Position numbers and translations under genes: made by a program
NCBI GenBank assembly: GCA_963808715.1
Contig: CAWEHG010000034.1
Location: 35,909-99,908, forward strand
Direction of reading: 5' to 3'
Origin: Ignavibacteriota bacterium
GTDB lineage: Bacteria; Bacteroidota; Ignavibacteria; UBA10030; UBA6906
Length of the DNA: 64,000 nucleotides
The notes under the pieces: model-generated
The model's input: only the letters and a program-made list of their open reading frames with translations
Databases searched by the model: none
Told to the model about the DNA's origin: nothing
In this document: positions 9,631 through 55,401 of the stretch, piece after piece
How positions within the stretch are numbered: the first letter of the stretch is position 1
How the letters are laid out: each line of letters starts with the position of its first letter

Positions 9631-9758
9631 GTGATAGCAAAGTAGTGCACACAATATCGAGAATCAATCGGCCTGGAGGGGGGGACGTTGATTTTTGTCG
9701 CAGAATTACGGAATTTGGACAAGAGACTGCTCTTTTCCCCGATCACTACGAGGTCGCC

Positions 9759-17031: not shown

Positions 17032-19798
17032 CTACAGCACATAGCCGAACATGAAATAGAGCAACAGCGGTCCTTCCTGCAGCGGATTGTTCGGGAGATC
17101 ACGGCCGAAGTAGAATCCCTTTCCGACGCTGAACACCGCGGGGCCGATGGGCGTATCGAGGGCCAATTCCAGGCCGAGACCGTAGCGGACCGTCTCGAAC
17201 TTGATCTCTCCCGGATCGGTGGACATGGACGCCATGTCGAACCGACCGCGCAGGTACGAGTCGACCAGGATCCTGAACGGGAGCAGATACCGGAACTCCA
17301 GGTTCAACTGCAGGAGCTGACGGCCGCGACGGTCGTCCTCGCGCACGCCGAACATGGATTCCTGCCCGCCCAGGCGGAACTCTTCGCTGAACGGCATCGA
17401 CTGGTCGGCATAGCCGAGGGTCACCCGGGGCCGCACCGTGAAGCGTCCCACCGTCGCGTAGCGCTCCCAGACCAGGTGCAGGGAGCTGTACGCCACCTGG
17501 CTGCCGAACGTCTTCGAAGCCGTCTCGTAGCTCAGCGTCAGGCCGATCCCGGAGGTCGGGAACGGGTACCGGTCCTTCGAATCGATGATCGTGCCGAACC
17601 GAAGCTTTCCGATCCGGGTCCGTTCTTCGAGCTGCGGGACACCGCCAAGATCCTCGGTGCGCACGTCCTGCAGCACATACTCGGCCGTCAGGTTCCCGAA
17701 CCGCTCCAGTTGCAGGCCGAACGCCACGATCCCGCCGTACCGCGTGTCCCGGTATTCCCCCACGTTCACCCGGTCCCATTGATTGAGCCCGGGAGGGGGA
17801 GCGTCCTCGTAGAGATAACTGTCGAGCGAGCTGGCGAAGGCTGCGGCCCTGAATGTCAGATGGGTTGCGAAGAGCCGGTAGGCCTTGTACTCCAGCAGCG
17901 CGCCGGCGGAGCGCTGCCCGCCGTATCCCGTGAAGCCGAGCTCCGTACCTCCGCCGCCGAGGCTGATGTCGCGGATGTCGACCTGTCCCTGCACGTGGCG
18001 TTCATTGTCGCCCCGGACCCCGAGCCGGATCAGTTGCGAGGGACGTTCTTTCAGCCGGATGACCAGGTGGTTCTCCCTGCCGGCATAGGCCACCTCGAGG
18101 TACATCTGGTCGAAGAGAGCGCCGCTGTTGATGTTGCGGAACCCGCTCCGGGCCTTCGAGATCTCGAACACTTCGCCCGGTTGCAGCGGGAAGTCCGAGA
18201 GGACGAACTCTTCTGACGCGCGAACCGTCCCCAGCACGCGGATCGAGGAGATCACCCCCTCGTTCAGTTTCCAGTGGAGGATCCCCGAGGCCGGATCGAA
18301 GGTGGCCGTATCGATCCGCGCCAGGGAGTACCCCCGCGACCGATACAGCCGGAGGATGTCGTCTCTCCCTTTCTGGACGCAAAGGTGGTTCAACGGCCTC
18401 CCCACGGCGCACCTGGTGAACGACAGCAGTTCCTCGGCACGGACCTTGACGCATCCCTCGATCGCCACCCCTCTGACCGGAGGGTTCCAGGTGGTGTTGA
18501 ACGTCACCGTGCTGCGCGTGCTGTCGGTGGAGATCTCGGCCCGGACGGACGCGTAGTCCCCGTTTCGTAGAGCAGGTTCACGTGATCCTGCACGTCCACC
18601 AGTCTCACGCCGGTCGCCAGGGTGTCGGCCAGGATGTGGCGCCAGAGAGTGTCGGGGATCGGATCTCCCGTCCGGGCAAACAACGGATGGGGCAACACCA
18701 TGCGGGCACTGTCGCCCGCCATTTCGAGCTTCTCCCGTGCGTAGATCGTCAGGATGTTCCTCACGACCGCGGCTGCCGCCTCCTCTCCCCGCAGGATGAG
18801 CGAGTCCAATCCGCCGAAGTCCGAAGAGAGGTGCCTGCCGATATCGGGGGTAACGACCATGTCGGCCCGGGCGAGCTGGAGAGCGTTGGCGGGTCCCATC
18901 ATGATGCCCATGATCTGGTCCGCCGTCTCCCACGGTGCCTTCATCTCCCCGGCGGAGCGCAGGCCGCTGGCGGAGTTCACCGCGATCACGATGTCGCAGC
19001 CGAAGGTCCCGGGCCACATCCACCGGGATGTTGCTGAGGAGTCCACCGTCGACAAGCCTCAGGCTGTCTCGCTCGACCGGGTCGAAGAGGAGCGGGACCG
19101 TTGCGCTCGCCCTGAGCGCCTCGGCCAGCGAACCGCTCTTCAGGATCACCCGGCTGGCCCGACACGAGGTCCGTCGTCATCGCGCGAAACGGGATCCGCA
19201 ACTCGTCGAACGTGGGAAAGGGGTGGTAGATCGCCTGGAGGGTGAGATTGCTCAGGTATTCCGTCAGCCGCTGTCCCGACGACACCGCGGAAGGGAGCAC
19301 CGGCTCGAGGCCTTCGAAGCGAAGGACGAGGAATCCTTTCTGCACCGCCAGCTTCTGGTCGAGGTACAGGTCCGTCCGTTTCGTTTCATCCGCCAGCGAA
19401 AGCACTTCGTCCCAGTCGGTGTGGACGCAGATGCTCTCGAGTTCCGTGGTCGTATACCCGGAGGCGTACAGCCCGCCGATGATCGACCCGATACTCGTCG
19501 CGGCGATGAAGTCGATGGGAACGCCGCTCCGTTCCAGTTCCCTGATCACCCCCACCTGGGCCACGCCCCGCGCACCTCCGCCGCTGAGGACCAGGCCGAC
19601 CCGGGGCCGCCGGATGTGCCGGTGACCGGCGGGGACAGAGACCGCGGCATGTGTGGTGTCCAATACCGGGGTGACCACCCACGTTTCTGCGCCGTGGCGG
19701 GGAGCCAGGCGCAGAGGAGCAACAGCGCCACGCCGGCGGCCGACGCGCCGGAAACTCACCGGGAGCCCCCTGGAGGGGAGGATGGGGGTGCAGTGCAT
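17032..19798 (-). CDS. Patatin-like phospholipase fused to POTRA + Omp85/BamA-type beta-barrel (PlpD-like), with apparent frameshifts near 18500-18560 and 19000-19050; the 5' end is uncertain
   Basis: The patatin [17 protein letters not shown] (GxSxG) and DGG-region are split across three ORFs/frames. The C-terminal 480 aa have surface-antigen D15 barrel features and end in an aromatic terminal (FGYVL). A probable signal peptide ([14 protein letters not shown]) sits in a third frame near 19690. Confidence 0.65.
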
Positions 19799-20421: not shown

Positions 20422-22497
20422 ATGAAACTCACACTCGCGTTCATCGGCCTTTTAATGGTGTTGGCGATTCCCCCGGTTCGCTCCCAGGGGATCACCGCCC
20501 TCTCCAAACCAGCAGGAGACGACAACACGAAGTACACCAGCGTCGGCAACATCGCCATCACGATCACGAACTTCGGCACTCTCGGGCACGGCTTCCGTCT
20601 GTGGCCACAGCAACCCTCGTTTCAGTATCCGCGCGGATCGGGGATCGAGCACATGTTCATTGGCGGCATCTGGATCGGGGCGTATCATCCTTCGAACGGC
20701 ATCCGCGTCAGTACCGCCGCGGTGGACGTCTCCTCGCTCCGTCCCGGAGCCGCAGAGGGATTTGAGTTCACCACCGGGATCGACTCCCGGGTCGTCGAGC
20801 GCTCGACATTGCCGGACAATCGATTCTATCTGCCCGGCGCTGTCAGCCATCAGGACTTTGTCGCAGATTTCACGGACACGAACACCGTCAATCCAAATCA
20901 GAACAACGAGCCGATCCCCAACCATGCGCCGCTTGGCGTGAACGTGCACATGGAGACGTACGCGTTCAACTATGCCTTCGCCGACAACTTTGTCATTCTC
21001 AATTACTGGATCAAGAACAACAACTTCTTCCCGCTGGACAGCGTATACGTGGCATTGTGGGCGGACATTGTGGTCCGGAACACGATCGTTTCTCCCCCTA
21101 CCGGCGGCACGTCGTTTTTCAACAAGGGGGGCCTCGGCTATATCGACTCACTAAACGTCGCCTACGGATTCGACTTCAACGGGGACAACGGGCTCGCCGA
21201 TACGTACGGGGCCATGAAGTTCCTCGGATCGACGCCCTTCCGGCATACCACGACCTACCAGACCTGGCAGTTCCGGAATTCGACCGACCCGGTGTTCTTC
21301 TCCCCGGCGAACGACGCTGACAAGTTCACCAAGATGTCCAGCGGGCTTCTCCCCTCACAGATCGCGGCGGTCACCTTCCCGATCAACAACATGACGATGA
21401 TCACCGCGGGCCCATACTCGCGCATTCCCGCCCGGGATTCGATCAATGTCGTGTTCGCCCTGATGGCCGCGAAGATGGTGAACTGGTCGATGCAGGATTC
21501 GAAGAACAACCCCGATATCCCGGAGAACCGCACCAATCTCTACCTGGCGTGCAAGTGGGCACAGCGCACGTACGACGGAGAGGACAAGAACGGGAACGGC
21601 ATTCAGGATTCGGGAGAGGTGTGGACGGGACCAATCATTCATGGCGAACAGATGCCGAAACGATTCTTCCTGCCGGCTCCTCCGAATGCTCCTCATGTGA
21701 AGGTCGTGCCGGGCGATCAGACGATCGACATCTATTGGGACCGTAATGCCGAGGCCTCCATCGATCCGATCTCCAATGTGCCGGATTTTGAGGGATATCG
21801 CATTTACGGCACGAATGTCGGATTCGACCTCACCGTTTCCCAGGATATCCTTGCAGGGATGAATACGCTCGGAGACTTCGACCGGAAAGACGACGATATA
21901 GGATACAACACCGGCTTTGGTGCGATCAGGCTGGCCCAACCCGTACAGTTCCCGCCAGACACCACGCACTATGCATACAAGTTCACCATGCCGGGCGTAT
22001 TGAACGGCTGGCAGTACGGGGTCGCCGTGACCGCGTACGACTCAGGCGACGCATCGATCGGGCTGGAAAGCCTTGAAAGCAGCCGGCTCCAGACTCTTGC
22101 ACGGGTGTTCCCGGGCACGCCCCCCTCCACCTCGACCAAGAACCCTGTTGGCGTGTATCCGAATCCGTACTACGCGAACGCGTACTGGGATGGAGCCCGG
22201 GAACGGCTGCGCAAACTCTATTTCCGGAATCTCCCCGCCCACGCCGAAGTGCGCATCTATACGATCACCGGCGATCTCGTTGACGCATTCACCCACGATG
22301 CGGAGACCTATACGGGGAGCGAGATCCAGTGGTTTCAAACCTTCTCCGACGGGACCCAGCGATTCGCCGGAGGCGAGCATGCCTGGGACCTCATCTCAGC
22401 CAAAGACCAGGCCATCGCAACAGGTCTCTACCTCTTCACAGTGAAGGATCTCTCCTCGGGAGAGACTCAGCGGGGGAAATTCCTTGTGGTCAAATAG
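20422..22497 (+). CDS. Secreted protein with a signal peptide and a T9SS C-terminal sorting domain (function unknown)
   Basis: N-terminus MKLTLAFIGLLMVLAIPPVRSQG. The C-terminal roughly 90 aa (VGVYPNPYYAN...VRIYTITGDLV...GLYLFTVKD...RGKFLVVK) have the type-A T9SS CTD pattern. Confidence 0.6.
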   Translation: MKLTLAFIGLLMVLAIPPVRSQGITALSKPAGDDNTKYTSVGNIAITITNFGTLGHGFRLWPQQPSFQYPRGSGIEHMFIGGIWIGAYHPSNGIRVSTAAVDVSSLRPGAAEGFEFTTGIDSRVVERSTLPDNRFYLPGAVSHQDFVADFTDTNTVNPNQNNEPIPNHAPLGVNVHMETYAFNYAFADNFVILNYWIKNNNFFPLDSVYVALWADIVVRNTIVSPPTGGTSFFNKGGLGYIDSLNVAYGFDFNGDNGLADTYGAMKFLGSTPFRHTTTYQTWQFRNSTDPVFFSPANDADKFTKMSSGLLPSQIAAVTFPINNMTMITAGPYSRIPARDSINVVFALMAAKMVNWSMQDSKNNPDIPENRTNLYLACKWAQRTYDGEDKNGNGIQDSGEVWTGPIIHGEQMPKRFFLPAPPNAPHVKVVPGDQTIDIYWDRNAEASIDPISNVPDFEGYRIYGTNVGFDLTVSQDILAGMNTLGDFDRKDDDIGYNTGFGAIRLAQPVQFPPDTTHYAYKFTMPGVLNGWQYGVAVTAYDSGDASIGLESLESSRLQTLARVFPGTPPSTSTKNPVGVYPNPYYANAYWDGARERLRKLYFRNLPAHAEVRIYTITGDLVDAFTHDAETYTGSEIQWFQTFSDGTQRFAGGEHAWDLISAKDQAIATGLYLFTVKDLSSGETQRGKFLVVK

Positions 22498-22566
22498 TAT
22501 CAGGTGATACTAACCTAAAATGAGTGGTGCCGTACTCAGTCAATCTCGTCATAACTGGAGGTCATC

Positions 22567-24918
22567 ATGAACCCTCGATGGATATTGAGTGCCGTAGTAA
22601 TCCTGCTGCTGGCCGGCGCACTGACCGCGCAGGCACAACTGCCACCCTACGCGAAGGTTGTATCGCTATCCCAGTTGCAGGCTGTTTCACGGGATTCATT
22701 GCTGAAGCTGGACACCCTTCAGAGTGCGACCGCCGGCAGAGCTCTCGATGACAGCTGGTACTGGCACGGCGGGGACGCGAACGCCGACACGGTCGCGATG
22801 ACCGGCGTGGTCATCGTAGCCCCCCGTACGCTGACGTACACGCTTGCGCGGTTCAACATCTTCATCCAGGATTCGACGGGCCGGATGACAGGATTGAACG
22901 TCCTGACCGACGACACGCTTGCCGCGGCGAAATCCACCGGGATCACAGCCCTGGATACGGGCATGGTGGTGACGATCGTCGGGAGGGTCACCGAGTTCGG
23001 AAGCGCGAACAACTCCCTCAGCGAAGCATTCGCCTACAAGTCTGGTTTCTTCACTGCCGTTACGCCGATTCAGATTCTCGGATACTGGGACAACGCCACG
23101 TTCGCGCGTCCGGCGCCGATCCCCGTGACCGTCGACAGCTTTGCTGCGGGCACCAAACCCATGCCGTCCCGGGGTGAAAGGTACGAAGGCACCTACGTAA
23201 AGATCTCGAACGTGACCGTCGTTTCCCTGAACACCAGCTCCGGAGCCTTCACGTTCCAGGATTCTCTCGGCAATCAGATGTCCATGTACGACGGTTCCGG
23301 ATGGTATACCTACCGCGGTCACAAACTCAGCGGTTCGAGATACTCCGCCCCTCCCGTCGGCACCAAGTTGAAGTACATCCAGGGAGTCATCATTCCACAG
23401 TCGAAGTCAGGGACGTGCGGCGACTACCAGATCATGCCGCTCTACCCGGGGCCAAAGGAACAGACCGGCTCGAAGTATGCGGGCGATATCGCCATCGACA
23501 GGTTTGCACCGTCGATCACGACGATCCGCCGCACGCCAACGCCTCCGCACACCACGGATGCGGTCACCGTGTCGTGGCAGGCGAAGGACCTGAACACGAG
23601 CGGACAGGTTGACAGCACCTTCCTGAATTACAGACTCCAACAATCCGGAGCATGGGTATCCGTGAAGGCACCGGCTCCGACGTTTGCCGGGGCCGACACG
23701 CTCTACAAAGTCGTGATCCCGCCGGGGGCGAAGGACAGTATCGTGAGCTACTACGTCTCCGCCTATGCCGGAGGGATCTATGGCACAAGCCCTGACCCGA
23801 CAATTCCGAACTACTATCGCGTCAAAGACACCGACTATTCGATCTATGATATTCAGTACACGCCGTTCACCAACGGCGTGCCGGGATTCTCGTTCGACAC
23901 CCTGACCGTACGCGGCACCATCACTTCAGACACGTCCTCCATCAAGGAGTTCCCGACCAGCGGCGCCCAATCCGGCCGTCCATCACTGTGGCTGCAATCC
24001 GGAACCGGCGGCTGGAACGGCGTCTGCATCTGGGGCGCTTCTGCCGCGGTGGGCATCGACACACTCCGGGTCGGCGACAGCGTCTCTGTGACCGGTGTCG
24101 TCTACGATTACAATGGACGCACGGTCCTCAAGGCAACGGCCTACACGATGATCCGACGCGGAGTGACGTTGCCGGCACCGAACCCCGTCAGCATCAGCGG
24201 CAGCGGATCACTGAGCTACCAGTTGAGTAATCCGCCGGTAAGCGGAGCCTCGCCCTTCGAACAATGGGAGGGAACGCTGATCCAGATCACCAATCCGTAC
24301 CTGATGCAACGCAATTCGGATGATGCGACCAATGGAAGCAACTCCTGTTTTGGCGAATTCTTCATCAGTTCGGCGAATACGGGTAGCAGCTCCACGTTCG
24401 GCCTGCGTGTCAACGACAATGGCATCAACGAATTCTACGCGGACACGAACGCGTACTATCGTTCGACCAGATACGGCCTCGATCATCCGCAAACGCCGAA
24501 CTTGAAGAAGACGCTGATCAGGCTCGGGCAGCGAATCTCGTACCTGCGTGGCATTCTCGACTACTCCTTCAGCAACTACAAGCTGGAACCCAGAACGAAC
24601 GCGGACTTCGGCACGATCACCTCCGTTCTTTTCGAGGATCCGACCGCGGTTGTCCGGTCGTACGAACTGTCGCAGAACTATCCGAATCCATTCAATCCGA
24701 CAACCACCATCCGATACGCGGTTCCCGTCGGCAGTCACGTCGAATTGAAGGTCTTCAATGCGCTCGGCCAGGTGGTCGAGACCCTTGTCGATCAGGAGCA
24801 AAAGGCCGGGGCGTACGTGGTCTCCTTTGATGCCTCCCGGCTTGCCACTGGCGTATACTTCTACGCATTGCGGTCCGGCGATTTCCGGACCGTGAAGAAG
24901 ATGCTTCTCGTGAAGTGA
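22567..24918 (+). CDS. Large secreted protein with a signal peptide and a canonical T9SS type-A C-terminal sorting domain
   Basis: C-terminus SQNYPNPFNPTTTIRYAVPVGSHVELKVFNALGQVVETLVD...TGVYFYALRSGDFRTVKKMLLVK. Confidence 0.7.
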   Translation: MNPRWILSAVVILLLAGALTAQAQLPPYAKVVSLSQLQAVSRDSLLKLDTLQSATAGRALDDSWYWHGGDANADTVAMTGVVIVAPRTLTYTLARFNIFIQDSTGRMTGLNVLTDDTLAAAKSTGITALDTGMVVTIVGRVTEFGSANNSLSEAFAYKSGFFTAVTPIQILGYWDNATFARPAPIPVTVDSFAAGTKPMPSRGERYEGTYVKISNVTVVSLNTSSGAFTFQDSLGNQMSMYDGSGWYTYRGHKLSGSRYSAPPVGTKLKYIQGVIIPQSKSGTCGDYQIMPLYPGPKEQTGSKYAGDIAIDRFAPSITTIRRTPTPPHTTDAVTVSWQAKDLNTSGQVDSTFLNYRLQQSGAWVSVKAPAPTFAGADTLYKVVIPPGAKDSIVSYYVSAYAGGIYGTSPDPTIPNYYRVKDTDYSIYDIQYTPFTNGVPGFSFDTLTVRGTITSDTSSIKEFPTSGAQSGRPSLWLQSGTGGWNGVCIWGASAAVGIDTLRVGDSVSVTGVVYDYNGRTVLKATAYTMIRRGVTLPAPNPVSISGSGSLSYQLSNPPVSGASPFEQWEGTLIQITNPYLMQRNSDDATNGSNSCFGEFFISSANTGSSSTFGLRVNDNGINEFYADTNAYYRSTRYGLDHPQTPNLKKTLIRLGQRISYLRGILDYSFSNYKLEPRTNADFGTITSVLFEDPTAVVRSYELSQNYPNPFNPTTTIRYAVPVGSHVELKVFNALGQVVETLVDQEQKAGAYVVSFDASRLATGVYFYALRSGDFRTVKKMLLVK

Positions 24919-24928
24919 TTGCTGTCCG

Positions 24929-24966
24929 CCGGGAGGAGGGTGCCCCTCCTCCCCGGACCTTTTCGC
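24929..24966 (+). terminator. Intrinsic terminator: hairpin ccGGGAGGAGGGtgcCCCTCCTCCCcgg followed by a CTTTTC run
   Basis: Seen directly, 11 bp after the stop at 24918. Confidence 0.5.
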
Positions 24967-24970
24967 AAGG

Positions 24971-26359
24971 ATGCCTGTGCGCCCCAGCTCTCTCGTCTTC
25001 CTCGTGGTCGTGGTGATGGCGCTTGGATGTTCGGACCATCTCACCGACCAGCCGCTCCCGGACCTGCCGCCCGAGACCTTTGTCGCGCTGCGGCCGGACG
25101 GGACGATGCGTGCCACTGTGAGTGTTCAGCACATACAGTGGTGGGCCGTCGATCCCGACGGATTTGTCGCCGAGTATCTCTGGTCTTTTGACAGCCTGAG
25201 ATGGTCGTCTACAACGAAGAACGACAGTCTCTTTGCGCTGAGTTTGAACGGGCTGGACACGACGTACTCGTTCTTCGTAAAAGCAGTCGACAACGCGGGG
25301 AACATTGATCCGACGCCGGCCTCGATCCGTTACCCGATCAAGAATTCCCCGCCAACGATCTCTTTCGTGCTGAATTCTGATGTGCCGGAGTCCACGTTCA
25401 CCGTCGCGTCATTCCAATGGACGGTCCGGGACATTGACGGAGACGCGTCGATCCAGAGCGTCTACTACGCGGTGGACGATACGCTCAACCCGTCCTCCTG
25501 GCACCGGCTCACCGGCACATCACGGTTGGTGACGCTCCGGAAGTCCGACGGCCTGACCGAAGGCAACCATGTGTTCTACGCGCGAGCTCAGGATGTCGCG
25601 GGAGTGTTCAGCACCACCGTCCGCATGCCGCGGGACACCACCAGGCGCTGGTATGTCAGGGAACCCCGGGGAGACTTCCTGGTCGTCGACGACTATGGCC
25701 CGCTGGATGGAGCCCAGGCCTTCTATTCCGGAGTGTTCGACACGTTGATGAACGGCCGGCTGCGCATACGGGACATCTTTGACATCAAGCTGGGAGCAAC
25801 GAGCTCTTCGCGAGGGAAGCTCGTCCCCCCGCTCGTGAATCCCGATTTTGTCGAAACCTTGAGGCTGTTCAAGTACGTGCTGTGGTACGGCGACAACTCG
25901 CCAAGCCTGGACATCGGTCAGGTCTCGCTACCTGAATTCCTGAAATCGGGCGGCAAGGTCCTGTTCACGACAGGGTTTCCCGATGGGCCGCTGGACCTCA
26001 CGGGGCTGGTCCCGTTCGCTCCGATCGACAACGTGGAACCGTCTCGTATCGCCCCCATCCTGCTTCCGAGGGACACTCTCGTATCACTCGATCCTTCATA
26101 TCCGGCACTTCTGCGGGACGATGCGTTCGCGATCTACACGTTCCCCCGCGGGCTCCTGCCGAAAGTGAATGCGCGCCCGCTCTACAGGATGGCGGTCATT
26201 CCTCCCCGACTGGCGGGGAACCATATCATGGGCGTGAAAGATGCCGACCAGGCCAGCTTCGTGCTGATCTCCGGGTTTCTTCACCGGTTTGGCACGCCGC
26301 CGGACAACGCTGCGGCGTTTTTCCGAAGAGTCTTCAAAGGTGAATTCGGAGTACAGTGA
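24971..26359 (+). CDS. Lipoprotein of unknown function (lipobox MALGCS)
   Basis: A signal peptide ending LGC, then a predicted beta-rich secreted domain. First gene of the four-gene co-directional cluster. Confidence 0.55.
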   Translation: MPVRPSSLVFLVVVVMALGCSDHLTDQPLPDLPPETFVALRPDGTMRATVSVQHIQWWAVDPDGFVAEYLWSFDSLRWSSTTKNDSLFALSLNGLDTTYSFFVKAVDNAGNIDPTPASIRYPIKNSPPTISFVLNSDVPESTFTVASFQWTVRDIDGDASIQSVYYAVDDTLNPSSWHRLTGTSRLVTLRKSDGLTEGNHVFYARAQDVAGVFSTTVRMPRDTTRRWYVREPRGDFLVVDDYGPLDGAQAFYSGVFDTLMNGRLRIRDIFDIKLGATSSSRGKLVPPLVNPDFVETLRLFKYVLWYGDNSPSLDIGQVSLPEFLKSGGKVLFTTGFPDGPLDLTGLVPFAPIDNVEPSRIAPILLPRDTLVSLDPSYPALLRDDAFAIYTFPRGLLPKVNARPLYRMAVIPPRLAGNHIMGVKDADQASFVLISGFLHRFGTPPDNAAAFFRRVFKGEFGVQ

Positions 26360-29160
26360 TGCGTACACCTCGGATCATCTGGCGGACAAGTCTTCTGCTC
26401 TTCCTCTGCTGGTCGACGACCCTATCGCAGGAACGGGGGACGATCAAGGGAAGGGTGTTCGACAACGTCACCAGAGACGGTCTCCCCGTCGTGAACGTGA
26501 AGGTGAAGGGGACCTACTACGGCGCCGCGACCGACGTCAACGGCAACTTCATGATCCCGAACGTGGCCCCTGGCAGCTACACGCTGGAGTTCACGATCGT
26601 GGGACACACCACTGTGCAGCGGACCGACGTCCGGGTACAGTCCGGACAAACGACGACGATCAACCAGGGATTGAACGAAACGGTCCTCTCGCTCGGCCAG
26701 GAAGTCATCGTCGTGGGCGAAAGACCCCTGTTCAACCTCGAAGAGACCTCGAGCAAGCGGTCAGTCAACGCTGAGGATCTGAAGGCGACAGCAATTGTGG
26801 ATGTGACCGGGATCGTCAGCCAGCAGGTCGGCGTGGTGCAGACGGACAACGAGATCCATATTCGGGGCGGGCGGTCGAACGAGAACGCCTATCTTCTTGA
26901 CGGAGTCTCCATTCAGGATCCGCTGGCGGGGACCGGGTTCGGGCTGCAACTCAGCGCTGAGGCCATTCAGGATCTCCAGGTCATCACCGGCGGCTATAAT
27001 GCCGAGTATGGCCAGGCGACCTCCGGCGTGGTCAACGTGTCGGTGAAGGACGGCGGTCCAGTCTACAGCGGCAGTCTTGCGGCCAAACATGATGTCGGAG
27101 GAGAGAATTCTTTCTTTCGGGGATTCGGAGGCGAAAGCTACGAGCTCACTCTCGGGGGCCCCGAGCCGATCACGACCTATCTCCTCCCCGCCCTGGGTAT
27201 CACCGGGATCGGGGACGTGACCTTCTTTACGAATCTTTACGGAGGATTCTCGAACGGCTTCTACGGACATCAGGCGCGCCAGGTCAATTCCTCGACATTC
27301 TACGGTACCCGTTTCGCGCCCAAGCAGGAGAACAACTGGTTCTGGCTTGCGAAACTGACGTGGCGCCCCACGCCCCTGTTTCGGGTGACCTACTCCTTCA
27401 ATCAGTCCGTGACCATCAACCAGAACTCCCAATCCCTCCAGACGAACCTCGAATATGTGGAGCCGAGTCCTGGCTATCAATACGATTTCCAGAACATCCT
27501 GGACAGTGCGAATACGTACACGCACAACAACCAATTGCACACGATCGGCATCACGCACACCCTTTCGAACACGACGTTCTACGAGCTCAAGTGGTCTCGA
27601 TTCTACACCAATCTCCGCACCGATGCCAACGGGAAGGACTACGCGCAGTATCGGGAGCCGAAGGACATCGTCAGGTTTCCCATTGAGTACTACGATCGGG
27701 GAGGGGGCAACATCGGCGTCATTCCGGGCGACGGATTGTACGACCTCGGGAATGGATTCACGTGGCATGACCATTTTGTGATCGAGAATGGACTGAAATT
27801 CGATCTGACACATGCCTTTTCGGACCAGAACAGGTTCAAGGCGGGCTTCGACGCGACATTTCAGCAGATGCAGAACATTGACATCTATCAGCCCTGGGCG
27901 GGGACGCTGGGTCTCAACAACGATGTGTACGAGGTCTATCCCGCCTTCGGCAGCATCTACGCGCAGGACAATATCACGTTCAGCGGAATGATCCTGAATG
28001 TTGGCCTGCGGTTCGACTACTGGTTCCCGGGGGATCTGGTCGACCAGGCCGTACAGGATACGAATGTCATCACCATCCCTCCAGAGGTCCGGAAGGACTA
28101 CATGGAAAACACGTATTCCTTTTTCGGCCACCGGTGGAAAGGGCGGATCAGCCCACGGCTCGGCATCTCTCATCCGATCTCCGACAATCAGATGCTGTTT
28201 CTCTCGTACGGGCACTTCTCCAAACGCCCGAAACCGCAATTCGTCTATGCAAAGCTGACTCCGGCGGCTTCACAGTCGACCTTTCAGAAGTTCGGCAATC
28301 CGGATCTGGACCCGGAAACGACGGTCGCCTACGAACTCGGGATCCAGAATCAGTTCTCGAACAACGACGTCCTGACCGTCACGCTCTACTACAGGGATAT
28401 CTTCGACTATGTGGCAACAAAACAGGCGAAGATCACGACTTCGCGCCTGAGCACCTCAGGCTATATCACCTATATCAATCAGGATTATGCGCGGGCGCGT
28501 GGGATCGAAGTGGAGTACCGCAAGCGGGTGGGCAGGTGGTTCCGCGGCCAGTGGTCCGGATCGTATTCCGTGACGACGGGTAAAAGTTCGACCGCCGACC
28601 AGGCAGTGCTGGTAGCGCGCGGACTCGAAGACGAGACCATCAAGGAGAACTACGTCCAGTGGGACCGGCCGTGGCAGTTCAACATGGCCATGACCTTCAG
28701 CGTTCCGAAGGGGGAAGCAACGTTCGCAGCCGGAGCATTCGACGATCTCTCACTCTATGTCCGGATGTTCTATCAATCCGGGAAACGATATTCTCCGTAC
28801 GTATTCGACGGCAATTCTCCGACAACCGGCCGCCCGATCTACGTGGTGGATCCGGAGAATCTCCTGGCGGAAACGGGAAGGGACTGGTTCTGGATCGACA
28901 TGAACCTTGAGAAGTCCTTCGATGTTCTGGGCGTGACCTTTGTCGCGTCCGCACAGGTGAAGAACCTCCTCAATACACAGAACTCGGCGATCATCAATCC
29001 CGTGACCGGGCGCGCGTACGAAGACGGCGATAATGTTCCATACAGCTGGAATGATCCCCGGTACCCGCAGCTGCAGGCTCCGGTCTCTCCGTACCCGTAC
29101 AATCCGGCGCGCTACCTGACGCCGCGCACGATGATCCTTGGCTTGACCGCGAGATTCTGA
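26356..29160 (+). CDS. TonB-dependent outer-membrane receptor, SusC/RagA-like (carboxypeptidase-regulatory-like N-domain + plug + 22-strand barrel)
   Basis: The N-terminus IKGRVFD...TDVNGNFMI...GSYTLEF is a CarbopepD_reg domain. Plug motifs IHIRGGRSNENAYLLDGVSIQDP, and the barrel ends in ...GLTARF. Confidence 0.8.
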   Translation: MMRTPRIIWRTSLLLFLCWSTTLSQERGTIKGRVFDNVTRDGLPVVNVKVKGTYYGAATDVNGNFMIPNVAPGSYTLEFTIVGHTTVQRTDVRVQSGQTTTINQGLNETVLSLGQEVIVVGERPLFNLEETSSKRSVNAEDLKATAIVDVTGIVSQQVGVVQTDNEIHIRGGRSNENAYLLDGVSIQDPLAGTGFGLQLSAEAIQDLQVITGGYNAEYGQATSGVVNVSVKDGGPVYSGSLAAKHDVGGENSFFRGFGGESYELTLGGPEPITTYLLPALGITGIGDVTFFTNLYGGFSNGFYGHQARQVNSSTFYGTRFAPKQENNWFWLAKLTWRPTPLFRVTYSFNQSVTINQNSQSLQTNLEYVEPSPGYQYDFQNILDSANTYTHNNQLHTIGITHTLSNTTFYELKWSRFYTNLRTDANGKDYAQYREPKDIVRFPIEYYDRGGGNIGVIPGDGLYDLGNGFTWHDHFVIENGLKFDLTHAFSDQNRFKAGFDATFQQMQNIDIYQPWAGTLGLNNDVYEVYPAFGSIYAQDNITFSGMILNVGLRFDYWFPGDLVDQAVQDTNVITIPPEVRKDYMENTYSFFGHRWKGRISPRLGISHPISDNQMLFLSYGHFSKRPKPQFVYAKLTPAASQSTFQKFGNPDLDPETTVAYELGIQNQFSNNDVLTVTLYYRDIFDYVATKQAKITTSRLSTSGYITYINQDYARARGIEVEYRKRVGRWFRGQWSGSYSVTTGKSSTADQAVLVARGLEDETIKENYVQWDRPWQFNMAMTFSVPKGEATFAAGAFDDLSLYVRMFYQSGKRYSPYVFDGNSPTTGRPIYVVDPENLLAETGRDWFWIDMNLEKSFDVLGVTFVASAQVKNLLNTQNSAIINPVTGRAYEDGDNVPYSWNDPRYPQLQAPVSPYPYNPARYLTPRTMILGLTARF

Positions 29161-30146
29161 TGACTCCACGAAATGCCTTCGTTCTGATCCTGATCCTGAG
29201 CTTCGCCGCGCGTCCTGCCGCGTCGCAGTTGCTCCCGATCCTGGGCGCCCAGCGCACGGGGACCGCCGCCGCCGTGTTCCTCAAGATCGGCGTTGGGGCG
29301 CGGGCAGCGGGCATGGGGGAGAGCTTCGTGGCCGTGGCCAACGACGCATCAGCGCTGTACCACAATCCCGCCGGCATTCTTCAATTCCCCGAGACACAGG
29401 TGCTGCTGTCGCATGCCAACTGGCTCGTCGATTTGAAGCACCAATTCGCCGGCGCAGTCTACCACATCACCCCGGATGACGCCCTCGGCCTCTCGGTGAC
29501 GGCGCTGCATACGGATGACATGAAGGTCACCACCGAAGCGCGCCCGGACGGCACTGGCGAGTATTTCCGCTACGGCGATCTTGCGCTCGGCCTCACGTAT
29601 GCACGGCGAATGACGGAGCAATTCGGCGTCGGCGTTACGGTCCGTTACCTGGACGAAACGCTCGCGTCAGTGCACATGCGCGGCGTGCTCGTCGATCTTG
29701 GCACGTACTACTGGACAGGCCTGGGCACAAGCCGCTTTTCCGCTGTGGTCTCGAATTTCGGCAACCAACTGACCCCAACGGGCACCGCGGAACCCTGGGG
29801 GAGCACGCCGGTCACGTCATTCCAGACGTTTCCACCGCCGACGATGTTCAAGCTCGGCTTTGCCTGGGAACCCGTGAAGAACGAGACGCACGTTTTAACG
29901 ACGTCCGCCCAGCTTAACCATCCGAACGACAACTCGGAGAGTCTCGCGTTCGGCCTGGAATACGGTTGGCAGAGCACGGTCTACCTACGCGCCGGATACA
30001 AGCTCAATGTCGAGGAAGAGGGTTTGACCCTGGGGGCAGGGGTTGAAGCGGACCTGGGCACGCTGGCGCTCGCCGTGGACTACGCGTACGCCTCTTTCAC
30101 AAATCTTGGCCTCGTCCAACGGATCTCGTTGTTAATGAAACTATGA
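29160..30146 (+). CDS. PorV/PorQ-like (FadL-like) outer-membrane beta-barrel protein
   Basis: The N-terminal motif FLKIGVGARAAGMGESFVAVANDASALYHNPAGI is characteristic of the PorV/PorQ/UPF0164 family. Size (about 330 aa) and beta-rich composition fit. The start overlaps the TBDR stop (ATGA). Confidence 0.5.
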   Translation: MTPRNAFVLILILSFAARPAASQLLPILGAQRTGTAAAVFLKIGVGARAAGMGESFVAVANDASALYHNPAGILQFPETQVLLSHANWLVDLKHQFAGAVYHITPDDALGLSVTALHTDDMKVTTEARPDGTGEYFRYGDLALGLTYARRMTEQFGVGVTVRYLDETLASVHMRGVLVDLGTYYWTGLGTSRFSAVVSNFGNQLTPTGTAEPWGSTPVTSFQTFPPPTMFKLGFAWEPVKNETHVLTTSAQLNHPNDNSESLAFGLEYGWQSTVYLRAGYKLNVEEEGLTLGAGVEADLGTLALAVDYAYASFTNLGLVQRISLLMKL

Positions 30147-31249
30147 AAAACCGCATCGTCGGCCCGCTTGCGCTTGTGGCATTCATTGCGTTCGCCTGCG
30201 AACAGCCGAACAGCCCTGACATCTCATCCTTGCCTCAGCCGGGCAAGCAACCTCCGCCGGGCGACACGACCTATGTGTTACAGTCTCCCCCATGGGGCGG
30301 GTTCAATCAGCCCGAGGCCGTGATCGTTGGCAACGAGCCATTCATCTATGTCGCGGATACGGAAAACGATCGTATCGTGATGCTCGATCTCGGCGGCGGT
30401 TTCGTCGGCGTGTCACCCCCGATCAAGCACCCGGTCGCCCTGACGGAGGACAAGCGGTTGCAGCTCATCGTGTGCGCACAGTTCGACACGCTGCTGCCGG
30501 GGCGAACCGCACCAACGACCTTTGGAGCGGTCTATCGCCTGGATCTGGTCTCCGTGATGCACTCTATCGCGTCGGTGACGCCGCGGCGTGTCTTCTACGA
30601 ACCGGGCGATTCGAGCCGCCGCTATACCGGCGTGGCCGCGTTGTACGACAATTCGTATTATCTTACCCGCGTCGGACCCAAGAACAGCCTCATCAGCTTC
30701 GATCGCGACAACGCCATTCTCCAGTTCTCGAAGAACGACTCCCTCATCAATTCCATAAGCGCCTCGAGCAACTTCGCCCCGGATGGGACCGGCCTGATGG
30801 CGATCCACCATCTGAATGGGATCGCCACTCTCCCGAACAAGCCGACCTCGGAGTTCGTCTATTCCCAGATCGCCGGGAGTTCCGGGATCGAACCCCTGTT
30901 CAAGGTCCAATGGATCAAGTTGGTGGCCGAAGGACTGACACAGAACTGGCAATCGAAGTTCTACGCTTACCGCGACGGGGACATCGATTTCCTTCGGCCG
31001 GGCTTTTTCGGCAACCCCCGGGGAGTGACGTTGGACCAATCAGAAAACCTGTTCGTGGCCGACGCGGACAGCAACGCGGTATTCCGGTTCACCTCGCGAG
31101 GTACGGAGCAGTTCTCGATCGCGAAGGACCCGGATGGAAAGGCGTATTTCAACCATCCGTACGGCGTCGCGTATTTCGACAAGACCGTGTACGTCGCCGA
31201 TCGAGGGAACAACAGGATCTTACGGTTCAAGCTCTCAACGGACCGCTGA
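30143..31249 (+). CDS. NHL-repeat beta-propeller lipoprotein
   Basis: Lipobox IAFACEQ. Repeated NHL-like blocks (FIYVADTENDRIVMLD, LFVADADSNAVFRF, VYVADRGNNRILRF). Confidence 0.65.
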   Translation: MKNRIVGPLALVAFIAFACEQPNSPDISSLPQPGKQPPPGDTTYVLQSPPWGGFNQPEAVIVGNEPFIYVADTENDRIVMLDLGGGFVGVSPPIKHPVALTEDKRLQLIVCAQFDTLLPGRTAPTTFGAVYRLDLVSVMHSIASVTPRRVFYEPGDSSRRYTGVAALYDNSYYLTRVGPKNSLISFDRDNAILQFSKNDSLINSISASSNFAPDGTGLMAIHHLNGIATLPNKPTSEFVYSQIAGSSGIEPLFKVQWIKLVAEGLTQNWQSKFYAYRDGDIDFLRPGFFGNPRGVTLDQSENLFVADADSNAVFRFTSRGTEQFSIAKDPDGKAYFNHPYGVAYFDKTVYVADRGNNRILRFKLSTDR

Positions 31250-31292
31250 CCGCAGTTGCATTTCACCCCCATTTTCTCCTCATTGCATCGGC

Positions 31293-33467
31293 ATGGTGTT
31301 CCTCAATCCCTGGTTCCTCCTCGGCCTCGCGGCAGCGGCGATCCCCGTCCTCATCCACCTGCTCCATGTCAAAAAACTGCGGACGGTGGAGTTCAGCTCG
31401 CTTCGCTTCCTCAAGGAGCTGCAGAAGTCGCGCATCCGGGCCGTCCGGATCCGGCAGCTGCTCCTGCTCCTCCTGCGCACACTGCTGATCATCGCCCTGG
31501 TCATGGCTTTCGCGCGCCCCACGGTTCGCGGCTCGTTCTTCGGATCGTTCGGCGGCGCGATGCCACGCACCACGTTGATCCTCCTGGACGACAGCCCGAG
31601 CATGACCGTGCGCGACGAGCGCGGGGTCCGTTTTGAACAGGCACGCCTCGCGGCCCAACGTATCGCCGCAACCGGTGATGAGGAGGACCGCGTGATCTTC
31701 TCTCCCGCCGCACCGCTGCGGGTCTCCGTGCCCGCGGCAGCACCGGCGCGATCAGCACTTGACCGCGCCATCAACGGCTCGGCCCCCTCCGTGGTCCATG
31801 TCCCATTTGCGGAGGCGCTTAGGCGTCTACGACCCGCCTTGAACGAACAGCCGGCGTCGGAACGGGAGATCTTCCTGATCACCGACGCTCAGGCGTCACA
31901 GTTCGCCCTCCCCGCACAGCCGGACGGCGAACCACCCGACCCTTTGCTGCACGCGACGGTCGTGCAGGTCGGCAGCGGAACCCCCGGCAACACGGGGGTC
32001 GTCGGGGTCGACCTCGAGAGCCAGGTCCTCGGCGCGCACAAACCGATGCGATTGAAGGTGACGCTCCGGCACACAGGAAACGATCGGCAGGGCGAGACCT
32101 TCGTGAGCCTGTATCTTGACGGCACCCGCGTCGCGCAGCGGTCGGTCGACCTGCCCGCTGGACTGCCAACGACGGTGACTCTGGACCCTCTCCCGAAGCG
32201 GACGGGAGCGATCGCCGGGTACGTGCAGATCGAGGACGACGCCCTGGAGACCGACAACATACGCCACTTCACCGTGCGGATCCCCGAACAGATCCGGGTC
32301 ATGGTCGTCGGCGAGTCCCCGGCGGACCTGGAATACCCCATGCTCGCGTTCACGCTGCGCGGAGATTCCTCCTTTGCCCGGATGTTCCGGGTGACCCCCC
32401 TCCCGCGCCAGCGGTTCGTCGCGTTCGACGGACGGACCTGCGACGTGCTGGTCCTGTGCGGGCTCCGCTCAGTGACCGCTGCCGAGGCCGCGGCGATCAC
32501 CCGCTTCACCGCCGGAGGCGGAGGAGTGATCCTGTTCGCGCCCCCGGGGGCGGACCAGGCCTCCTATCGCGATATTCTGCTGCCCGCACTGGGTCTGCCG
32601 AGGACGGTGCGCGCGCGCGTGGTGTCCGCCGATTCATCGGGCAGAGACCGTGGGTTCGTGACCTTCTCCTCGGTGGACCGCGACCATCCGTTGCTCCGCG
32701 ACCTGCTCGAGCGGACGCGCCGTGACCGCCCTTCCCCACCGACAGTGGAATCCCCGCGTGTTACCAGCACGTTCGCTCTCCCGACGGCCGGGATCGGACA
32801 GGCCATCATCAGCCTCTCCAACGGCGAGACGTTCCTGTCGGAATTCCCCGTGGGCAAAGGGCACCTTCTCTGGTTCTCGGTGGACGGGGGGAGACTCGCA
32901 TCCGACTTTCCCCTGCGAGGGATCTACGCCCCGCTGCTGCACCGGGCGGTGCTGTATCTTGCTGGGCGCGCCGACGCCGAACCGACCTTCCTCGCCGGCG
33001 AGCCGGTCGCGCTGATCCCTCCGGAGGGCCTCGACCGAGATCCGGAACGCCTCGTGGTCAAGTCACCATCGGGGCTGGACGAGCAATACGGACCCCAACC
33101 TGCGGGTCCCCGCCGCAAGGCGGCGGTGAAGACCGGACCCGCCATGGAACTCGGCATCTACGAGCTGAGGAGCCGGGATGCGACCGCACGCTCCGCCCCG
33201 GTGGCCCTGGCAGCCGTGACGCTTGATACCGCCGAGTGCGATCTGCGCACAGCCACCGACGAAGAGTTGGCCCACTTCTGGAAAGCGATCGGCGTCGCTC
33301 CCGACCTCACCCGGCGGATCTCCGCGGACGGCTCTCTGGAGCAATCCATCCTTGAGACGCGCAACGGTACCGAACTCTGGAGGTTCTTCGCCGGACTCGC
33401 CCTTCTCTGTGCGCTTCTCGAGATGTATGTCGCACGAATCTCCCGCGCCGAGGTCCCCGATGCCTGA
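31293..33467 (+). CDS. BatA-domain (N-terminal double-TM, TIGR02226-like) membrane protein, 724 aa
   Basis: N-terminus MVFLNPWFLLGLAAAAIPVLIHLLHVKKLRTVEFSSLRFL is the BatA N-terminal signature. A C-terminal TM helix is present. Confidence 0.6.
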   Translation: MVFLNPWFLLGLAAAAIPVLIHLLHVKKLRTVEFSSLRFLKELQKSRIRAVRIRQLLLLLLRTLLIIALVMAFARPTVRGSFFGSFGGAMPRTTLILLDDSPSMTVRDERGVRFEQARLAAQRIAATGDEEDRVIFSPAAPLRVSVPAAAPARSALDRAINGSAPSVVHVPFAEALRRLRPALNEQPASEREIFLITDAQASQFALPAQPDGEPPDPLLHATVVQVGSGTPGNTGVVGVDLESQVLGAHKPMRLKVTLRHTGNDRQGETFVSLYLDGTRVAQRSVDLPAGLPTTVTLDPLPKRTGAIAGYVQIEDDALETDNIRHFTVRIPEQIRVMVVGESPADLEYPMLAFTLRGDSSFARMFRVTPLPRQRFVAFDGRTCDVLVLCGLRSVTAAEAAAITRFTAGGGGVILFAPPGADQASYRDILLPALGLPRTVRARVVSADSSGRDRGFVTFSSVDRDHPLLRDLLERTRRDRPSPPTVESPRVTSTFALPTAGIGQAIISLSNGETFLSEFPVGKGHLLWFSVDGGRLASDFPLRGIYAPLLHRAVLYLAGRADAEPTFLAGEPVALIPPEGLDRDPERLVVKSPSGLDEQYGPQPAGPRRKAAVKTGPAMELGIYELRSRDATARSAPVALAAVTLDTAECDLRTATDEELAHFWKAIGVAPDLTRRISADGSLEQSILETRNGTELWRFFAGLALLCALLEMYVARISRAEVPDA

Positions 33468-34772: not shown

Positions 34773-35546
34773 ATGCTGGAGATCGCCATACAGGCCGCCC
34801 GCGAGGCGGGACAGTACCTCAAAGAGAGCGTCGGCAAGGTCCGGTCCATCGAGGTCAAACAGGGCGAGGAACGGAACCTCGTCTCCGAGATCGACAAGAC
34901 CTCGGAAGCGACCATCATCCGGATCCTGCGCTCGCACTTCCCCACCCACGCTTTCCTCGCCGAGGAGGGGAGCGGCGCGGGGAGCGCTTCGGACTACACG
35001 TGGGTGATCGATCCCCTGGACGGCACGACGAATTTCCTCCACGGGCTTCCGATCTTCTGCGTCACCATCGGACTGGAGTACAAAGGCGAGATCGTCGCGG
35101 GAGTCGTCTACGACCCCAACCGGGAGGAGCTCTTCACCGCGGAAAAGGGGAGCGGAGCCTTCTTGAACGGGACCCGCCTGCGGGTGACCACCACCGACAG
35201 CCTGCTCCATTCACTCGTCGTGACCGGCTTCCCGTACAACATCGCCGAGAACCCGAGAAACGCGGTGGAACGGTTCGTCGGCTTCCTCATGGCCGCGCGG
35301 GGCGTGCGCCGCCTCGGATCGGCCGCGCTGGATCTGTCCTACGTCGCCGCCGGACGGTTCGACGGATTCTGGGAGGTGTATCTCCACCCATGGGACATGG
35401 CTGCGGGGATGCTGCTGGTCAGCGAGGCGGGTGGGACAACGAGTGACTTCGCGGGGAAGCCGATGTCGATCTATCGCCACGACATCCTCGCCAGCAACGG
35501 CCGGATCCACGACGCGATGCTGGAGGTGCTTTCGAAGGCGGGGTGA
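34773..35546 (+). CDS. suhB: Inositol monophosphatase family protein (SuhB-like)
   Basis: WVIDPLDGTTNF, plus GxAAxD and WDxAAG motifs. Confidence 0.75.
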   Translation: MLEIAIQAAREAGQYLKESVGKVRSIEVKQGEERNLVSEIDKTSEATIIRILRSHFPTHAFLAEEGSGAGSASDYTWVIDPLDGTTNFLHGLPIFCVTIGLEYKGEIVAGVVYDPNREELFTAEKGSGAFLNGTRLRVTTTDSLLHSLVVTGFPYNIAENPRNAVERFVGFLMAARGVRRLGSAALDLSYVAAGRFDGFWEVYLHPWDMAAGMLLVSEAGGTTSDFAGKPMSIYRHDILASNGRIHDAMLEVLSKAG

Positions 35547-35562
35547 TCCGGGGTGGGATCCT

Positions 35563-36910
35563 CTAGTGGACCACAGGCGTCCGCCAGGGGTGGACCCCAT
35601 CGTGGTCGACGAGGGCGCGGATGAGCGGCGGGCGATCCCCGGGGGTGTCGGTGAACGTGAGGCATGAACGGAAATCCGCGGGCCCGGGGATCTCGGAGCC
35701 TTCTCTGTCCGTGAACATCACGGCCAGAAGATCTCCGGCGTGGATCTCCTCCCCCGACTTCTTCTGCAGAAGGATCCCCGCCTTGGGATCCACGGCATCG
35801 GCGAGGGTCTTTCGCCCCGCCCCCAGCTCGATGGCAAGCATGCCGATGCGACGCGTATCGAAGCCGCTCAGATACCCGTGTTCGCTCGCTGCGCACCTCG
35901 ATCGTCCGGCCGCGACCGGGGATACGGTGGACGGACCCGCTCAGGAACGAGAGGTCGCCCCCTTGCCGCCGGACCAGCGCGAGGAACTTCTCCAGCGCCC
36001 GGCCGGAGTAGATCGCTTCGCGGCACAACTTCATCCCGGAGGCGATGTCCGGCGCCTTGCCGCCGAGGTACACCATGGCGCCGCCGAGCACATAGGTCAC
36101 CTCCATCAGATCGGCGACAGGCTTCCCCTTGAGGCAGTCGACCGACTCCACCACCTCCAGCCAGTTCCCCACGGCCTTGCCGAGAGGCTGATCCATCCCC
36201 GTGACGAACCCGATCGTCCGTTTTCCCGCGCGGTTCCCGATGTCGACCAGCGCACGGGCGAGCGCCACCGAATCCCGCTCCTCCCTCATGAACGCCCCGT
36301 TGCCGGTCTTGATGTCGAGCACCAGCGCGTCGATCCCCTCGGCGAGCTTCTTGCTCATGATGCTGCCGGCGATCAGCGGGATCGCCTCGACCGTCGCGGT
36401 CACATCGCGCAGCGCATACAGCTTCCGGTCCGCCGGCACGACCTCGGCGGTCTGCCCGGCCAGCACGAGGCCGCACTCGGCGATGATCGCACGGTACTCA
36501 TCCATCGGGATCGCGGTCCGGAAGCCGGGGATCGACTCCAGCTTGTCCAGCGTCCCTCCGGTGTGTCCGAGTCCGCGGCCGGAGATCATCGGGACCGGCA
36601 CTCCGCACGCGGCCACCATGGGCGCGAGGATGAGCGACACCTTGTCGCCCACGCCGCCGGTGCTGTGCTTGTCCACCTTGACGCCGGGGATGTCGGAGAG
36701 GTCGAACACCGCGCCCGAATGGAGCATGAGGTCCGTGAAGGCGGAGGTCTCCGCCTCGGTCATCCCCCGGAACACGACCGCCATCAGCCAGGCGGACATC
36801 TGGTAGTCGGGGATGGTGCCGGCAACGTAGCCGTCGATCAGCTGCCGGAGCTCTTCCCGGGTCAGCTCCAACCCTTCGCGTTTCTTCCTGATCAGTTCGA
36901 CGGGATTCAT
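35563..36910 (-). CDS. Thymidine / pyrimidine-nucleoside phosphorylase, with an apparent frameshift near 35850-35950
   Basis: MNPVELIRKKREG...HSTGGVGDK...SGRGLGHTGGTLDKLE. The C-terminal block (DPKAGILLQKKSGEEI) sits in a second frame (ORF 35563..35841). Confidence 0.7.
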
Positions 36911-49810: not shown

Positions 49811-49838
49811 TCACGGACCGAACTCAGGAAACCGACTC

Positions 49839-51306: not shown

Positions 51307-51411
51307 GAACCCGCTGCCCGCCGGCGCGGGCCCGGAGAACGGAACCAGGACATGGACAGACACATCACCGAACGCTGGGATCAAGCCCACGCCGCAGCCA
51401 ACACGGCGTAC

Positions 51412-55398: not shown

Positions 55399-55401
55399 CC
55401 G

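Follow-up and report, generated by a model that had tools for sequence, protein, structure and literature searches.

Depletion of exogenous DNA by Bacteroides thetaiotaomicron requires ddbABCDEF (Sharan et al., PNAS 2025, PMC12478041), a locus whose products are three nucleases, DdbC (a TonB-dependent transporter), DdbD (a DUF5689 protein), and DdbE (PMC12478041). According to predictions, DdbD sits on DdbC and is similar to DNA binders of the OB/HIN type, and both proteins are homologous to proteins that Riemerella needs for natural transformation (PMC12478041), encoded in Riemerella anatipestifer by RA0C_RS04915/04920 (PMC8459023). A CarboxypepD_reg domain is part of this Riemerella transporter (PMC8459023). 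Neither T9SS (type IX secretion system) nor PorV occurs in the ddb paper (PMC12478041). Here, we analyzed a cluster of six genes, designated A to F, in a stretch of 64,000 nucleotides from an Ignavibacteriota bacterium (contig CAWEHG010000034.1, positions 35,909 to 99,908; the whole stretch is referred to as the window). The cluster encodes a TonB-dependent transporter (D) together with a protein made of DUF5689-like modules (B), a PorV/PorQ-family barrel (E), two lipoproteins (C and F), and an additional secreted protein (A). With confidence that we would place midway between doubt and acceptance, we propose that this locus mediates ddb-like capture and import of extracellular nucleic acid, most likely DNA, and is the Ignavibacteria-type counterpart of the Bacteroides ddb locus.

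Several other systems combine components of the same families. PorV-like barrels of the T9SS keep the uncleaved C-terminal domain (CTD) of their cognate partner bound, as in the PorQ-PorZ and PorV-PorU pairs (reviewed in PMC10202324). The alginate locus of Rhodothermus marinus contains genes for a TonB receptor (2,805 nt), a T9SS type-A protein, and a PorV/PorQ-family protein, in addition to a hypothetical gene (PMC9530828, Fig. 2). According to annotation only, PorV/PorQ-family genes in hmu-like loci of Porphyromonas lie next to genes for T9SS type-A proteins and TonB receptors (PMC12106395). BamG is a FadL-like barrel of the Bacteroidota BAM complex that binds both BamA and a surface lipoprotein (PMC12578637). 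We searched the literature for this combination of genes in Ignavibacteria and for PorV-like paralogues located next to TonB receptors; the search returned no study of the cluster, only annotation-level mentions.

Organization of the gene cluster

The six genes, all on the forward strand, span positions 20422 to 31249 of the window. Gene A (20422-22497) encodes a secreted protein of 691 residues, and gene B (22567-24918) encodes a putative T9SS type-A cargo protein of 783 residues. The product of gene C (24971-26359) is a 462-residue lipoprotein with the lipobox MALGC. Gene D, which starts at the ATG at 26359 or at the GTG at 26356 and ends at 29160, encodes the 934-residue TonB-dependent transporter. 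Genes E (29160-30146) and F (30143-31249) encode the PorV/PorQ-family outer-membrane barrel (328 residues) and an NHL-repeat lipoprotein with the lipobox AFAC (368 residues), respectively. Reading of the junction sequences revealed an overlap of 1 nt (TGATG) or 4 nt (GTGA) between C and D, depending on the start of D, of 1 nt between D and E, and of 4 nt (ATGA) between E and F. The open reading frames and the junctions thus bear out the first-pass annotation of this DNA, which had described C, D, E, and F as co-directional genes, the last three overlapping by 1 to 4 nt.

The extent assigned to the cluster by the same annotation (24971-33467) was correct for the C-to-F core, but it left out A and B and wrongly included a BatA-like gene (G; 31293-33467, forward strand) encoding a double-transmembrane protein with BatA and VWA domains. 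This gene does follow F, its true start being the ATG at 31293, 43 nt past F, but it adjoins F in none of the 80 species loci described below and is not a member of the cluster. Since the order of A to F is conserved and BatA is never a neighbor, the real unit is 20422-31249 rather than 24971-33467.

The gap between B and C contains, on the forward strand, a GC-rich hairpin (24924-24958) followed by UUUU. Its predicted stability (-32.3 kcal/mol, z = -3.9) was equaled by none of 200 shuffled sequences. The hairpin may act as a partial terminator or as a transcript stabilizer, and its position in the B-C gap means that the unit may be read as A-B plus C-D-E-F. A scan for sigma-70 promoters and terminators performed no better than on shuffled sequences and was uninformative. 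The G+C content is 58 to 60% over 20 to 32 kb, matching the six-gene cluster, versus ~65% elsewhere in the window. Given the vertical conservation of the cluster within the lineage, this dip may stem from the amino-acid composition of its secreted and outer-membrane products and not from a recent transfer event.

Conservation across species

Relatives of E are encoded in at least 558 species loci, as determined by scanning one genome per species; homologues of E number more than 2800, the best-scoring ones being ~55 to 63% identical. Synteny was counted by tblastn of the window proteins in the best 80 species loci, one per species, which belong to Ignavibacteria-type metagenome-assembled genomes (MAGs), Candidatus Kryptonium, "Chlorobi"-labelled MAGs, KSB1, and Calditrichota. 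The arrangement A-B-C-D-E-F, in the same order and on the same strand, was found in nearly every sufficiently long locus, and independent gene calls on other assemblies gave the same arrangement. D adjoins E in 63 of 65 loci, F adjoins E in 70 of 72, and C adjoins D in 56 of 58; A is located upstream in 40 of 46 species loci, with 42 to 65% identity, and B is in place in 38 of 46. Median gaps are -1 nt (C/D), 1 nt (D/E), 1 nt (E/F), 21 nt (A/B), and 77 nt (B/C, the longest), and most of the C/D, D/E, and E/F gaps do not exceed 10 nt. D and E are each 45 to 68% identical between lineages at phylum-level distances. The synteny of the four genes C to F, which had been proposed as a check of the first-pass annotation, is therefore not unique to this contig. 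Few outer-membrane loci of this large and mostly uncultured group of bacteria are as conserved as the cluster.

In many Ignavibacteriaceae-type loci (L014, L024, L029, L087, and others), the cluster is located between genes for lipoyl synthase/2-oxoacid dehydrogenase and for ATP synthase. This conserved housekeeping neighborhood gives the cluster the appearance of a stable core-genome feature. Deducing the function of the cluster from its flanking genes was considered and rejected, since the neighbors that do not encode CTD proteins vary and have housekeeping roles (lipoyl synthase, 2-oxoacid dehydrogenase, ATP synthase).

A few loci deviate from the common arrangement. On a 1.6-Mb contig, locus L001 contains a B12-binding radical-SAM gene between D and E (8450-9838 of that locus); this locus lacks A, and the gene upstream of C encodes a T9SS protein of the Phosphoesterase family. 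In two MAGs labelled "Bacteroidota/Chlorobiaceae" (L030, 4367-7057; L059, 4470-7100), the length of gene C is about doubled (877 to 897 codons). In L030, BNR/Sortilin-type propeller repeats are present in the additional part of C, and a separate B gene was not found.

The transporter and the PorV/PorQ-family barrel

D comprises an N-terminal CarboxypepD_reg domain (PF13715), a plug (PF07715), and a TonB_dep_Rec barrel (PF00593). D also contains a TonB-box-like sequence, LGQEVIVVGERP; among 63 D orthologues, the TonB-box-like LGQEVVVIGEKPL motif stands ahead of the plug, both being highly conserved. The TonB box was identified by inspection of the sequence only. Scoring of D with the SusC/RagA model TIGR04056 gave 54.5 bits for a cut-off of 368.25, the match being N-terminal only (residues 29 to 233 on positions 2 to 206 of the 981-position model). 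D is thus a complete TonB-dependent transporter that is not of the SusC/RagA type, at variance with the "SusC-like" label of the first-pass annotation. No match to the SusD family was found in A to F or in the Pfam tables of seven related loci. The missing SusD partner, which had been regarded as an anomaly, is indeed missing, but none is expected since D is not of the SusC type.

The same annotation had taken the product of the gene at 29160 for a PorV/PorQ-family barrel, the alternative being an unrelated porin. E scored 212.2 bits with the PorV_fam model NF033709 (cut-off, 90), residues 35 to 327 covering positions 1 to 325 of the 326-position model, and 36 bits with the PorV model PF19572 (cut-off, 27). 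In addition, a profile of E retrieved the PorV protein of F. johnsoniae (6h3i_F) at 1.3e-13. These matches identify a PorV/PorQ-family protein and not an unrelated porin. In contrast, E remained below the equivalog cut-offs of PorV (NF033710; 82.9 versus 250), PorQ (NF033711; 87.4 versus 220), and PorV2 (NF052325; 70.2 versus 325). Matches to FadL and Toluene_X were weak, the FadL score (21.7) falling below its cut-off of 29.7. By its profile scores, E is therefore a member of the PorV/PorQ family but not PorV, PorQ, or PorV2 proper. No second paralogue of the PorV family or of the TonB receptor was found in the window or the flanks.

T9SS-type proteins and lipoproteins of the cluster

B contains two DUF5689-like modules (nt 22654-23451 and 23839-24621) with a middle Ig-like domain and ends with a Por_Secre_tail CTD (nt 24655-24918). 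The CTD matched PF18962 at 6.7e-11 (42.8 bits; cut-off, 27) and TIGR04183 (41.7; cut-off, 23), which places B among the T9SS type-A proteins. The B of the window does not reach PF18942 directly, and its modules were assigned to DUF5689 by hhalign comparison with a Pfam-verified DUF5689 module (probabilities of 98.8% at 1e-16 and 99.5% at 4e-22). All 18 of the B orthologues searched matched the noncatalytic N-terminal part of the ExeM/NucH extracellular endonucleases (NF033681), and 10 matched the OB-fold nucleic-acid-binding domain PF01336. A search of solved structures with the sequence of B returned nothing useful. On the basis of these matches, B is identified as a putative T9SS type-A cargo consisting of two DUF5689-like modules of the OB-fold type, similar to DdbD.

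A has a large β-sandwich at its N terminus, followed by an Fn3-like domain and by a long CTD-like end (residues 572 to 691; nt 22135-22497). The AlphaFold2 model (predicted local distance difference test [pLDDT] score, 73.5) is all-β, with a C-terminal β-sandwich at residues 577 to 689, the conserved N terminus (residues 41 to 80) being modelled at low confidence. Neither A nor 18 A orthologues matched Pfam, and A had no sequence match in the Protein Data Bank (PDB); Foldseek comparison of the model with the PDB returned generic Fn3/β-sandwich matches and no enzyme fold, with a weak resemblance of the N-terminal sandwich to the N-domains of glucan phosphorylases. The CTD-like end, YPNPY...GKFLVVK, did not match PF18962; it matched the C terminus of PorZ weakly (4e-4) and, by hhalign, the type-A CTD found in B with a probability of 87.9%, over 37 columns of its first half only. 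Comparison of a profile of this end with solved structures yielded nothing useful. It is the best-conserved region of A across orthologues (64%, versus 45% for the rest of the protein); a signal that is simply removed by cleavage would not be expected to be so conserved, whereas such conservation is consistent with a domain that remains attached to a partner. The CTD-type proteins A and B, placed upstream of the cluster in the first-pass annotation as a possible T9SS cargo link, are conserved members of it; other CTD proteins replace A where it is missing and often follow F.

The model of C (AlphaFold2; pLDDT, 87.7) contains two Fn3/Ig-like domains and a C-terminal α/β domain. Foldseek matches of the model in the PDB were limited to Fn3 tandems, sequence and profile searches with the α/β domain gave no match in Pfam or the PDB, and the sequence of C retrieved nothing useful among solved structures. 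F contains NHL repeats of the β-propeller type (PF01436, 7.7e-14). This match, the lipobox, the 4-nt overlap, and the conserved adjacency confirm the earlier description of F as an NHL-type lipoprotein tightly coupled to E. Acidic residues follow the lipidated Cys in the C and F orthologues; this stretch resembles the surface-export signal of Bacteroidota lipoproteins and suggests that C and F may be exposed at the cell surface.

Genes downstream of F

A large T9SS-CTD protein is very often encoded directly 3' of F on the same strand. Among 23 such proteins that were aligned, 20 contain two PLDc_2 domains, two an EEP (Exo_endo_phos) domain, and one a subtilase domain. The N-terminal module matched DUF5689 in all 19 proteins tested (best match, 1.2e-18). 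The post-F position is occupied by a DUF5689/PLD gene in ~29 species loci, and a DUF5689-PLD or (two cases) EEP protein is encoded there in ~40% of species; in L087, the DUF5689/PLD gene overlaps F by 4 nt. The tandem DUF5689 modules of B and these DUF5689-PLD or EEP-domain proteins together point to extracellular DNA as the substrate and to ddb as the nearest known system.

Comparison with described systems

The cluster shares with the ddb locus the co-occurrence of a TonB-dependent transporter and a protein of the DUF5689 type for which DNA binding is predicted, in this case B. Additional surface proteins of unassigned function are also present in both. Secreted nucleases are part of the ddb locus, whereas here they are present only in ~40% of the orthologous loci, not in the window, and are of the PLD type, in contrast to those described for ddb. 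The DUF5689 protein also differs, since B comprises two modules, is a predicted T9SS type-A cargo, and is encoded two genes upstream of D, with the lipoprotein gene C in between. The PorV/PorQ-family barrel, the NHL lipoprotein, and protein A are additions that do not feature in accounts of ddb loci. Like D, the Riemerella transporter contains a CarboxypepD_reg domain.

Similarity to the PorV-PorU, PorQ-PorZ, and PorP/SprF-type pairs of the T9SS lies in the association of a PorV-family barrel with CTD-bearing proteins and in the proposed retention of an uncleaved CTD at the surface. Unlike in these pairs, the barrel does not reach the equivalog cut-off of PorV, PorQ, or PorV2, its translational coupling is to a TonB-dependent transporter and not to T9SS core or sortase genes, and its cluster encodes no PorU- or PorZ-like protein. 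In SusCD utilisomes and polysaccharide utilization loci (PULs), surface binding proteins and enzymes are likewise grouped with a TonB-dependent importer; here, however, D fails the SusC/RagA model, SusD and glycoside hydrolases are absent, and the putative binders are T9SS cargo instead of lipoproteins. The R. marinus segment, compared at the level of annotation only, has the same gene families, a receptor gene that equals D in length (2,805 nt), and no SusD, but its gene order is different and it lies among alginate lyase genes. BamG offers a parallel of structural role: a barrel of the FadL/PorV fold fixed to a larger barrel, with loops that hold a surface protein, is what we propose for E beside D, although BamG belongs to another machine, which assembles outer-membrane proteins. 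If the ddb-like reading is correct, the cluster is a variant of the recently described DNA-utilization loci, with a distinctive and previously unstudied T9SS/PorV-barrel architecture.

Proposed function and alternative explanations

According to the ddb-like model, B would be exported by the T9SS and, once on the cell surface, would use its DUF5689 modules of the OB-fold type to bind DNA, as has been proposed for DdbD. E, produced together with D, would keep the CTD of B, of A, or of both bound, by analogy with PorQ-PorZ and PorV-PorU; gene linkage with CTD proteins suggests this binding. The binding proteins would thus be located beside D, in place of a lipoprotein of the SusD or DdbD type. 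Nucleases would cut the DNA; many species encode them in the operon, and the lineage of the window would encode them elsewhere. D would import the fragments with energy provided by TonB, C and F serving as surface or periplasmic accessory subunits. In this scheme, we infer the nature of the substrate, the tether between E and its cargo, the contact between D and E, and where C and F reside. The imported DNA could be used for nutrition or for natural transformation. The first-pass annotation had envisaged an outer-membrane complex linking TonB-dependent uptake with T9SS surface proteins: the linkage is borne out by synteny, and D, E, and the cargo may form such a physical complex. A more specific and rather doubtful version is that, in Ignavibacteria, Kryptonia, KSB1, and Calditrichota, the lid that binds the substrate of the TonB-dependent transporter is, instead of a lipoprotein, a T9SS protein with its CTD plugged in a dedicated, co-assembled PorV/PorQ barrel, the whole forming a machine that takes up extracellular DNA for food or transformation.

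Several observations weigh against import of nucleic acid. Neither the locus in the window nor its immediate surroundings contain a nuclease gene, and no match to the PLD core or to the DUF5689 module was found in the window by tblastn. The cluster likewise has no nuclease gene in or beside it in the closest relatives (L004, L010, L011, L015, and L086). In the lineage of the window, such an enzyme would therefore have to be encoded elsewhere. PLD-family enzymes can be phospholipases, so that the PLD proteins downstream of F could be either nucleases or phospholipases. Loci lacking A have another T9SS-CTD protein upstream of C, for example, an M4 peptidase (L009) or a phosphoesterase (L001). 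The likeness of D to DdbC and to RA0C_RS04915 was judged by shared architecture only (CarboxypepD_reg, plug, and barrel), no function could be assigned to A, C, or F, and 10 of the 18 B orthologues also give weak matches to CBM_56. Finally, DNA binding by DUF5689 is, in the literature, a structural prediction only (PMC12478041).

The CBM_56 matches would be accounted for by a SusD-less locus for utilization of a glycan or other polymer, in which A and B are carbohydrate-binding surface proteins and D imports oligosaccharides. The similar gene set found beside alginate lyases in the R. marinus alginate PUL (PMC9530828) and the weak resemblance of the N-terminal sandwich of A to glucan phosphorylase N-domains also fit this explanation. 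We nonetheless consider it unlikely, since no carbohydrate-active enzyme family was found among the neighbors of the cluster in the loci surveyed, the enzyme that recurs in the operon has a PLD or EEP domain rather than a glycosidase domain, and the modules of B match DUF5689 and the N-terminal part of ExeM/NucH far better than any CBM. In addition, the 45 to 68% identity of D and E over phylum-level distances is unusual for PUL transporters, which diversify with their substrates. The PLD domains themselves, present after F in many species, would be phospholipases if the locus scavenged phosphorus from phospholipids or organophosphates, with E acting as a FadL-like channel for hydrophobic products and D importing phosphorylated head groups. 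The Phosphoesterase-family T9SS protein upstream of C in L001 and the weak FadL/Toluene_X matches of E would agree with such a role, but E scores under the FadL cut-off (21.7 versus 29.7) and far over that of PorV_fam, the PLD proteins carry the N-terminal DUF5689 module that extracellular nucleases have, and B is of the DUF5689 and ExeM/NucH type in nearly all loci. Phosphorus scavenging is therefore an explanation to which we attach very little probability.

Affiliation of E with the PorV/PorQ family, the exceptional conservation of the CTD-like end of A, and the presence of CTD proteins on both sides of the core in many species could be explained if the cluster were a module for T9SS cargo handling and surface display. 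E would then be a private PorQ/PorV-like carrier anchoring A and B for adhesion or surface architecture, and D, C, and F would provide a platform or an unrelated import function. Precedents exist in the PorQ-PorZ, PorV-PorU, and SprF-type pairs, which are dedicated to specific cargo or encoded together with it (PMC10202324). Surface display appears improbable to us, because D retains the conserved TonB-box-like motif and plug expected of an active importer and because the recurring cargo (proteins with DUF5689, PLD, and EEP domains) indicates substrate processing rather than adhesion. Each of these three explanations accounts for fewer observations than does ddb-like import of nucleic acid.

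All six proteins are annotated merely as hypothetical or with a generic family name. If the ddb-like model is correct, ddb DNA-utilization systems extend well beyond gut Bacteroidales, environmental Ignavibacteria gain a defined route to the use of extracellular DNA, and a TonB-dependent transporter can have a T9SS cargo and a PorV-like barrel in place of its lipoprotein partner. The model also provides a testable role for many "PorV/PorQ family proteins" outside the core T9SS, including those of Rhodothermus and Porphyromonas located beside TonB receptors. A T9SS lid on the transporter, were it to exist, would give the PorV fold a new function and would be a new way of assembling import complexes in the outer membrane.

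Other features of the window

Genes for nucleobase and nucleoside catabolism are found at 1933-10835 and 35471-36910 of the window. They encode a pyrimidine-nucleoside phosphorylase (35471-36910, reverse strand; 4.5e-113 to 1brw) and a dihydropyrimidinase/hydantoinase (8242-9654, reverse strand; 4e-148), in addition to xanthine-dehydrogenase-family subunits (4746-8311) and a further amidohydrolase within the 1933-10835 region. These genes would fit the use of DNA breakdown products, but they are not conserved neighbors of the cluster. Just upstream of the cluster, a Patatin-POTRA-Omp85 protein, similar to the outer-membrane phospholipase/transporter PlpD, is encoded on the reverse strand (17032-19149); genes for Patatin, POTRA, and Omp85 domains also adjoin the cluster in three to four other loci. 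A hydrogenase region (47795-63352) encodes an Fe-S/FAD oxidoreductase (47795-49810), two [NiFe]-hydrogenase large subunits (51352-52905 and 60093-61520), a NuoF-like flavoprotein (57022-58770), and HypF (61979-63352).

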